DNA of 17,832 nucleotides from a virus (Duplodnaviria; Heunggongvirae; Uroviricota; Caudoviricetes), in the IMG/VR virus record IMGVR_UViG_2537561685_000014, positions 1 through 17,832 of that record; one strand, given 5' to 3'. Below are positions 17,354 to 17,832 of this stretch, one piece after another; the first letter of the stretch is position 1, and each line of letters opens with the position of its first letter. A program made the position numbers and the translations under genes. The notes under the pieces are model-generated. The model saw only the letters and a program-made list of their open reading frames with translations, was not told where the DNA came from and searched no databases.

Positions 17354-17599
17354 ATGGCCATAAAAGGTCTTGAGCAGGCCGTTGAAAACCTCAGCCGTAT
17401 CAGCAAAACGGCGGTGCCTGGTGCCGCCGCAATGACCATTAACCGCGTTGCGTCATCCGCGATATCGCAGTCTGCGTCACAGGTTGCCCGTGAGACAAAG
17501 GTACGCCGGAAACTGGTAAAGGAAAGGGCCAGGCTGAAAAGGGCCACGGTCAAAAATCCGCAGGCCAGAATCAGGGTTAACCGTAACCGGCTCATTTAA
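17354..17599 (+). pseudogene. Z: Tail protein Z, truncated after about 76 codons
   Basis: Matches the lambda Z N-terminus MAIKGLEQAVENLSRISK... up to RIRVNR, then unrelated sequence and a stop at 17597. Confidence 0.6.
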
Positions 17600-17832
17600 A
17601 CCGTCTGGTCTGTTTCCTCCGGCTCTACAAAAATAATGTCCATCATTTTTAATGGACACTATCGTATGAAACACCGGACCTGGATCACTGAAGCTTTACG
17701 TCTTCACTTTGAAGAACATTTACCCCGGGTTGTGGCCGGGCGTCGCCTGGGTGTACCAAAATCAACTGTTTGTAGTATGTTCGTGCGCTTTCGGAGAGCT
17801 GGCCTTTCGTGGCCTTTGCCCGCAGGCATGTC
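17584..17832 (+). mobile_element. Probable end of an insertion sequence (IS630-like?) interrupting Z; runs off the window
   Basis: Collinearity with lambda ends at about 17583, next to a tandem TAACCG TAACCG. About 80 nt later an ORF begins whose N-terminus looks like a transposase HTH. Confidence 0.3.
17666..17832 (+). CDS. Transposase-like protein, N-terminal fragment (partial)
   Basis: MKHRTWITEALRLHFEEHLPRVVAGRRLGVPKSTVCSMFVRFRRAGLSWPLPAG: helix-turn-helix resembling transposase N-termini; truncated by the window end. Confidence 0.35.
   Translation, partial: MKHRTWITEALRLHFEEHLPRVVAGRRLGVPKSTVCSMFVRFRRAGLSWPLPAGM

Follow-up and report, generated by a model that had tools for sequence, protein, structure and literature searches.

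With high confidence, a 2,699-bp insertion sequence (IS) of the IS66 family, resembling ISCro1, transposed into codon 77 of the tail completion gene Z in a lambda-like prophage, here called prophage A, of an enterotoxigenic E. coli (ETEC) lineage, and the contig on which the junction was seen is chimeric. The window, i.e. the whole stretch of 17,832 nt that was analysed, contains the left junction. The insertion itself is documented by the ends of the element, its gene content, an 8-bp duplication, an empty target site in a prophage paralogous to A, and Z sequence that resumes behind the element in complete genomes with the identical junction. As the first-pass annotation had stated, only one end of the element lies in the window, which stops 250 nt into the IS because draft contigs break in this multi-copy repeat. 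The right end of the IS and the 3′ part of Z are located outside the window; for the source strain, a complete IS is suggested by its relatives. The insertion is an ordinary event caused by a common and catalogued IS that is already known.

Interruption of gene Z

The features at the junction are listed below. L001 denotes the corresponding locus of strain 504237, which contains the complete element.

17354..17582, plus strand: lambda-type tail completion gene Z, 5′ fragment (97.8% nucleotide identity to lambda Z; Pfam Minor_tail_Z)
17575-17582, no strand: left copy of the target-site duplication GGTTAACC, an 8-bp palindrome that flanks the IS left and right in L001
17578-17589, no strand: tandem TAACCG TAACCG, made up of target TAACC (17578-17582) and the IS terminus G TAACCG (17583-17589)

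The extent of Z was assessed by megablast against phage records. Window 17354-17583 aligned with lambda gene Z (J02459 7977-8206; 192 aa) at 97.8% nucleotide identity (E 1e-108), and other lambdoid phages showed up to 99.6% identity to the Z segment. None of the phage Z alignments in these records extended beyond query base 230 (window 17583). Z had been proposed to match lambda for about 76 codons and to lose collinearity at about 17583, and both points were confirmed: codons 1-76 are wholly Z, followed by base 1 of codon 77, and all phage Z matches end by 17583. The break is far beyond chance: a widespread 2,699-bp element has a left end that agrees with bases 17583-17832 at 100% identity.

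The Z ORF (17354-17599) starts with an ATG at 17354 and comprises 81 codons. The junction falls within codon 77 and is followed by four IS-encoded codons (N-R-L-I) and a stop codon at 17597-17599, inside the IS. The 81-aa product covers positions 1-78 of the 190 positions of the Pfam profile Minor_tail_Z (E 3.4e-27) and thereby falls short of a full-length match of 190 positions in a gene sited between FII and U. The same Pfam search found profile positions 72-190 on the 3′ side of the IS in L001. The Z gene of the window is a disrupted member of the Minor_tail_Z (lambda gpZ) family, and RefSeq annotates the fragment in six genomes as ‘phage tail protein, incomplete, missing C-terminus’. In-silico excision of the IS together with one duplicate yielded a 579-bp ORF with a product identical to lambda gpZ at 190 of 192 residues. 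The 81-aa product is devoid of the C-terminal 115 residues. A promoter and terminator consensus scan of window 17300-17832 gave no matches.

The target sequence was reconstructed from both junctions and from the empty site. In the paralogous prophage, whose Z is intact (L003 of strain 504237 and L004 of strain 602354), the undisturbed target CCAGAATCAGGGTTAACCGGGGGG is present a single time, and lambda carries AGTTAACC at the same place. The left junction reads ...cagGGTTAACC/GTAACCGGCTC..., where the slash marks the boundary of the IS, or in a longer form in L001 ...atcagGGTTAACC/GTAACCGGCTCATTT.... The right junction in L001 reads ...GAGTCGCTTAC/GGTTAACCgggg and in its longer form ...GACGAGTCGCTTAC/GGTTAACCgggggg.... 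A duplication of TA had been predicted; the actual duplication that flanks the IS in the complete genome is 8 bp long, GGTTAACC. Following the IS in L001, the 3′ fragment of Z resumes and is succeeded by U, V, G, T and H. The resumption of Z/U sequence proposed as a check was thus found, and complete genomes with the identical junction also show the second junction and imperfect inverted repeats, the lack of which would have spoken against the proposal.

The tandem TAACCG TAACCG noted at the break is indeed present at 17578-17589. As a feature of the element it does not hold up, and we rejected it as a meaningful repeat: the target ...GTTAACC happens to lie directly before the terminus of the IS, GTAACCGG. 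Across the position of the tandem, GTTAACCGGGG is found in lambda and in the empty site, and other copies of the IS are without the tandem. In the O26:H11 copy of the same IS, the junction is ...GAATGACA/GTAACCGGCTC and the TAACCG tandem is absent. Megablast matches in O26/O103 genomes begin at query base 208, 22 nt before the IS, and a remnant of Z carried along by the IS was considered as their source. This candidate was rejected. The O26 locus turned out to be tail-fibre sequence, which is unrelated and has a separate duplication, GAATGACA, and the 22-nt extension of the alignments is due to chance.

Going by the IS66 family in general, the DDE transposase TnpC, aided by TnpA and TnpB, would have cut the target with a stagger of 8 bp, and repair of these staggered cuts would have led to the duplication of GGTTAACC. 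Z would thereby have been split into the 81-aa N-terminal product and a C-terminal remnant that lacks a proper start. Lambda particles without gpZ look normal and are mostly non-infectious (PMC11099176), and the Z::IS prophage is therefore expected to be defective: if induced, it would most likely make normal-looking but mostly non-infectious particles. For practical purposes, it should be treated as defective for the production of infectious particles, and the main value of the finding lies in annotation, where the feature should be labelled as Z (tail completion) gene interrupted by ISCro1, IS66 family, with the 8-bp duplication GGTTAACC.

The inserted element and its family

The following features belong to the element, the first three in coordinates of the window and the last three in coordinates of L001.

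17583..17832, plus strand: IS66-family insertion sequence (ISCro1-like), first 250 nt, 100% identical to L001 6230-6479
17583..17604, plus strand: left terminal inverted repeat (IRL) GTAACCGGCTCATTTAAACCGT, from a repeat search, with the boundary taken from four copies
17636..17832, plus strand: tnpA, 5′ part (first 197 nt), RefSeq WP_001711999.1 ‘IS66-like element accessory protein TnpA’
L001 6283-6960, plus strand: tnpA, complete (678 bp, 225 aa), RefSeq and NF038385
L001 6960-7307, plus strand: tnpB, complete (348 bp, 115 aa), RefSeq, PF05717 and NF033819
L001 7327-8898, plus strand: tnpC, complete (1,572 bp, 523 aa), RefSeq ‘IS66-like element ISCro1 family transposase’

The complete element spans L001 6230-8928 (2,699 bp). 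In L001 the genes are arranged in the order Z 5′ fragment, tnpA, tnpB, tnpC and Z 3′ fragment (‘missing N-terminus’), ahead of the tail genes named above. Comparison of GTAACCGGCTCATTTAAACCGT with the reverse complement of the right end, GTAAGCGACTCGTCAGAACCGT, showed matches at 16 of 22 positions, and the repeat starts with 5′-GTAA. The ends of the element could be fixed because four copies have different flanks and perfect 8-bp duplications.

All three proteins were recognized by IS66 profiles. TnpA matched the NCBIfam model NF038385 (IS66_access_TnpA) with E 3.5e-88 and a score of 294 (cut-off 150) over residues 13-206, and Pfam HTH_Tnp_1 with E 8.5e-15 over residues 102-159, a part that lies beyond the window. 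TnpB matched PF05717 (TnpB_IS66; Pfam, E 4.7e-40) and NF033819 (IS66_TnpB; NCBIfam, E 5.2e-38). For TnpC, NF033517 (transpos_IS66; NCBIfam) gave E 2.4e-143 with a score of 477.9 (cut-off 180) and DDE_Tnp_IS66 (PF03050; Pfam) gave E 2.5e-103. Its further domains zf-IS66, LZ_Tnp_IS66 and DDE_Tnp_IS66_C were found with Pfam models PF13005 (1.3e-12), PF13007 (1.1e-12) and PF13817 (1.1e-15). The element accordingly shows the hallmarks of the IS66 family, namely co-oriented tnpABC, an IS66-type DDE TnpC with zinc-finger and leucine-zipper, TnpB, a helix-turn-helix TnpA, an 8-bp duplication and imperfect terminal inverted repeats starting with GTAA. The view that Z is truncated by a transposase-bearing mobile element is therefore correct, the insertion at about codon 76-77 being tnpA-tnpB-tnpC.

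The type of element that had been proposed has to be revised. In the first-pass annotation, the N-terminus of the ORF that runs to the window end was compared to the helix-turn-helix of IS630-type transposases. An IS630/Tc1-mariner-type element has a single transposase gene, coding for an HTH-DDE protein, and duplicates TA. The likeness to the present element is confined to a protein with an N-terminal helix-turn-helix; within its first 65 aa, the ORF gives weak matches to generic helix-turn-helix models (HTH_23, E 0.03; Sigma70_r4, E 0.036), and seeing a helix-turn-helix there was reasonable. However, HTH_Tnp_IS630 and DDE_3 matched none of the three proteins at E ≤ 0.01, and no IS630 model matched the N-terminal 65 or 100 aa of TnpA even at E ≤ 10. 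Instead, the ORF is an IS66 TnpA and is followed by IS66 TnpB and the IS66 DDE transposase, giving three genes and a DDE domain of the IS66 type, and instead of TA, 8 bp (GGTTAACC) are duplicated. Profile searches and the 8-bp duplication refute the IS630 assignment, which we regard as practically without any chance of being right.

The reading frame of tnpA is open to the window end from the RefSeq start ATG at 17636 as well as from ATG 17666 (Met11). The latter is the likelier start, since the NCBIfam model begins at residue 13. Residues 1-100 of TnpA (L001 6283-6582) are outside the match to HTH_Tnp_1 and outside NF047595, which starts at residue 102. These approximately 100 residues look like a second, weakly HTH-like module, the first 65 of which are encoded within window 17636-17832. 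Shortly after the left end of the IS, at window 17637-17658, the 7-bp arms TGTCCAT ... ATGGACA form an inverted repeat around a loop of 8 nt and overlap the RefSeq start codon of tnpA (17636). Compared to shuffled sequences, the folding z of the 118 nt at the start of the IS is -2.8. The stem-loop at 17637-17658 might lower the amount of TnpA translated from read-through transcripts.

The element is very probably the catalogued, already known ISCro1 (RefSeq: ISCro1 family) of the IS66 family, a name that rests on the RefSeq label, equal length and equal size of the duplication. ISCro1 was first named in Citrobacter rodentium ICC168 and is widespread on E. coli chromosomes and plasmids. It resembles the present element in its 2,699-bp length, 8-bp duplication, multi-copy state and residence on mobile elements, with no structural differences between the two. 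ISCro1 was described in 2025 as an IS66-family element of 2,699 bp with an 8-bp target-site duplication (PMC12115866). Published sizes vary, and an ‘ISCro1’ in ST131 is given as 2,824 bp (PMC8764528). In C. rodentium, ISCro1 is the most expanded IS and is mostly found within other mobile elements (PMC3072379). In a scan of species-representative genomes, the exact 30-nt left end of the IS was not found in a C. rodentium record; the matches came mostly from one Escherichia draft with contigs breaking in the IS, from a Citrobacter sp. and from two MAG contigs.

Elements of the IS66 family carry tnpABC and produce an 8-bp duplication (PMC6778807). With regard to its relatives, the present element shares the tnpA-tnpB-tnpC arrangement, a DDE TnpC with zinc-finger and leucine-zipper, the 8-bp duplication and GTAA termini with IS66 and IS679. 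IS66 from the Agrobacterium Ti plasmid and IS679 from the EPEC plasmid pB171 are the studied prototypes of the family. Reportedly, all three genes tnpA, tnpB and tnpC are needed, and GTAA is the typical terminal start of IS66-family elements. In contrast to these prototypes, TnpA is long here (225 aa), and its N-terminal part of ~100 aa is covered by NF038385 but not by NF047595. ISEc8, an IS66-family element of E. coli, is distinct, with ~71% nucleotide identity over part of tnpC.

The contig and the two prophages

The window equals the entire draft contig AQCA01000149.1 (GCA_000359055.2; 17,832 nt); the last 10,479 nt of that contig equal window 7354-17832 exactly. Complete relatives hold two paralogous lambdoid prophages. 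Prophage A combines a DLP12-like early/lysis region with Z::IS (L041 plus L001). Prophage B contains hokD, Q, a methylase, tRNAs, GH108 lysis genes and bor/iss, and its Z is intact (L003, L004). As further observations on prophage A, ISEc47 and IS100 (IS21 family) are located in its early/lysis region (L041 2462-4887 and 10105-11906), ren is frameshifted, and the prophage is multiply degraded. ISEc47 belongs to the IS66 family too and is an element separate from the one in Z.

Window 1-9032 is specific to B, with three differences from it. From 9033, the position where homology between A and B begins, to 17258, blocks of A alleles alternate with blocks of B alleles, and 76 A sites and 40 B sites were counted in window 11367-17583. 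No private substitutions were found in the mosaic stretch of the window. It contains 13 one-base deletions, all of them at sites polymorphic between A and B, which make up ~2% of the columns.

12590, 12595, 12627, 12732, 14258, 14422, 14472: one-base deletions
14699, 14700, 17002, 17091, 17094, 17099: one-base deletions, continued

Two readings of this mosaic were weighed. A genuine recombinant prophage, formed by gene conversion, would truly link Z::IS to the left 9 kb of the window. Recombination among lambdoid prophages does occur, and the onset of the mosaic coincides exactly with that of A/B homology. However, a recombinant does not account for 13 of 13 single-base deletions on A/B polymorphic sites together with a lack of private substitutions in the stretch. 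Moreover, the mosaic differs from one sibling draft to the next within the same sequencing series, and upstream of the junction only A alleles are seen in the complete genomes, in the metagenome contig and in the Logan contig. We consider a genuine recombinant highly improbable. On the allele pattern, window 9033-17258 is to be read as a collapsed A/B consensus and not as recombination; ambiguity letters were probably dropped in making this consensus. By the same comparison, the frameshifts in the portal (12229-13830), protease C (13811-15130) and FII (16993-17342) genes are to be read as artefacts, and the physical linkage of Z::IS to the left 9 kb is probably an artefact as well. Because the contig is a two-prophage consensus, no end-to-end match to the window exists among the complete E. 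coli genomes.

A collapsed contig raises the question of its last junction. Given the mixed alleles of two prophages in window 9033-17258, the 13 artefactual deletions and an end within a repeat, the assembly might have mis-joined Z to a copy of the IS located elsewhere. Three observations are at odds with this. Firstly, among 5,426 complete E. coli genomes, window 17354-17832 was found 100% identical and in one piece in six complete ETEC chromosomes, which also have the matching second junction and the 8-bp duplication. Secondly, the exact 81-aa fusion product occurs on at least 24 contigs from independent assemblies, among them seven chromosome-length records, several drafts of ETEC, one metagenome contig from ENA and one Logan run. 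Thirdly, window 17259-17832 contains prophage-A alleles only and is 100% identical to L001, and the Z/IS junction is therefore sound. A mis-join is extremely unlikely. Draft and metagenome contigs with the truncated Z (six of the ten listed were worked out) end 90-300 nt into the IS, and one ends ~960 nt into it.

The right junction being outside the window, the IS of the source strain might also mark the edge of a rearrangement, i.e. a deletion or inversion between IS copies, so that neither the remainder of Z nor the tail genes would follow it. The ETEC chromosomes with the junction have about 8-15 query-matching places each, and recombination between copies of ISCro1 is on record (PMC12115866). 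In strain 504237, where both ends were examined, the IS is nevertheless a simple insertion with intact flanking duplication, and the gene calls of CP025916 (L042) agree with a simple insertion. A rearrangement edge in the source strain is accordingly rated as very unlikely, and a simple insertion into Z is preferred.

For the use of this record, the technical lesson is more useful than the insertion: the apparent frameshifts in portal, protease and FII and the apparent linkage of Z::IS to the early/lysis region ought not to be taken for biology. Since the exact junction is found on at least 24 contigs, with the seven complete chromosomes among them, it could be used to mark one lineage of ETEC. 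IS-disrupted lambdoid prophages of pathogenic E. coli, with an IS in a morphogenesis gene, are of the same kind, and the site at codon 77 of Z is specific to this ETEC lineage.

Other copies of the element and prophage cargo

A copy of the IS covering at least 80% of the element is present in about 1,500 of the 5,426 complete E. coli genomes, on chromosomes and plasmids. Four copies were compared. Each is 2,699 bp long, they are 99.85-100% identical (0-4 differences per 2,699 nt), and their perfect 8-bp duplications are different:

Z (prophage A): GGTTAACC
terminase: GTTCATCG
U-V spacer: TCACATTT
O26 tail fibre: GAATGACA

Within prophage B of strain 504237, the IS is located in the large terminase gene (L003 15440-18055), and within prophage B of the sister ETEC strain 602354 it is located in the U-V spacer (L004 22359-24974). 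Such different sites in sister strains, and the near-identical copies with intact duplications, may be indirect signs of transposition activity. These sites, together with Z in prophage A and the tail fibre in O26, form the small sample behind the idea that ISCro1 has a preference, in insertion or in retention, for the modules of lambdoid prophages that serve head-tail morphogenesis, and acts as a recurrent ‘prophage-locking’ agent. If this were true, ISCro1 would fix prophages with cargo in lineages of E. coli, ETEC included. We regard the idea as unlikely; the same placement of copies may equally fit a neutral tolerance of insertions in non-essential prophage DNA.

The same two readings, a bias for these genes or tolerance of insertions there, apply to four unrelated E. 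coli genomes in which the distance between a copy of the IS and the Z start is at most ~1.2 kb.

The left part of the window contains cargo and candidate cargo. A 427-aa ORF is encoded on the minus strand at window 2451-3734, between the Q antiterminator gene and the DNA methyltransferase gene, a position at which lambdoid phages often carry cargo genes. Pfam and PADLOC searches of this ORF gave no matches at E ≤ 0.001, and in relatives RefSeq lists it as ‘hypothetical protein’. The cargo genes downstream of Q are:

4335-5381: N6/N4 type II-like DNA methyltransferase (PF01555; PADLOC MTase_II, 2.5e-151)
5550-5625 and 5629-5703: tRNA-Thr(TGT) and tRNA-Gly(TCC)
8347-8640, minus strand: Bor/Iss serum-survival lipoprotein gene
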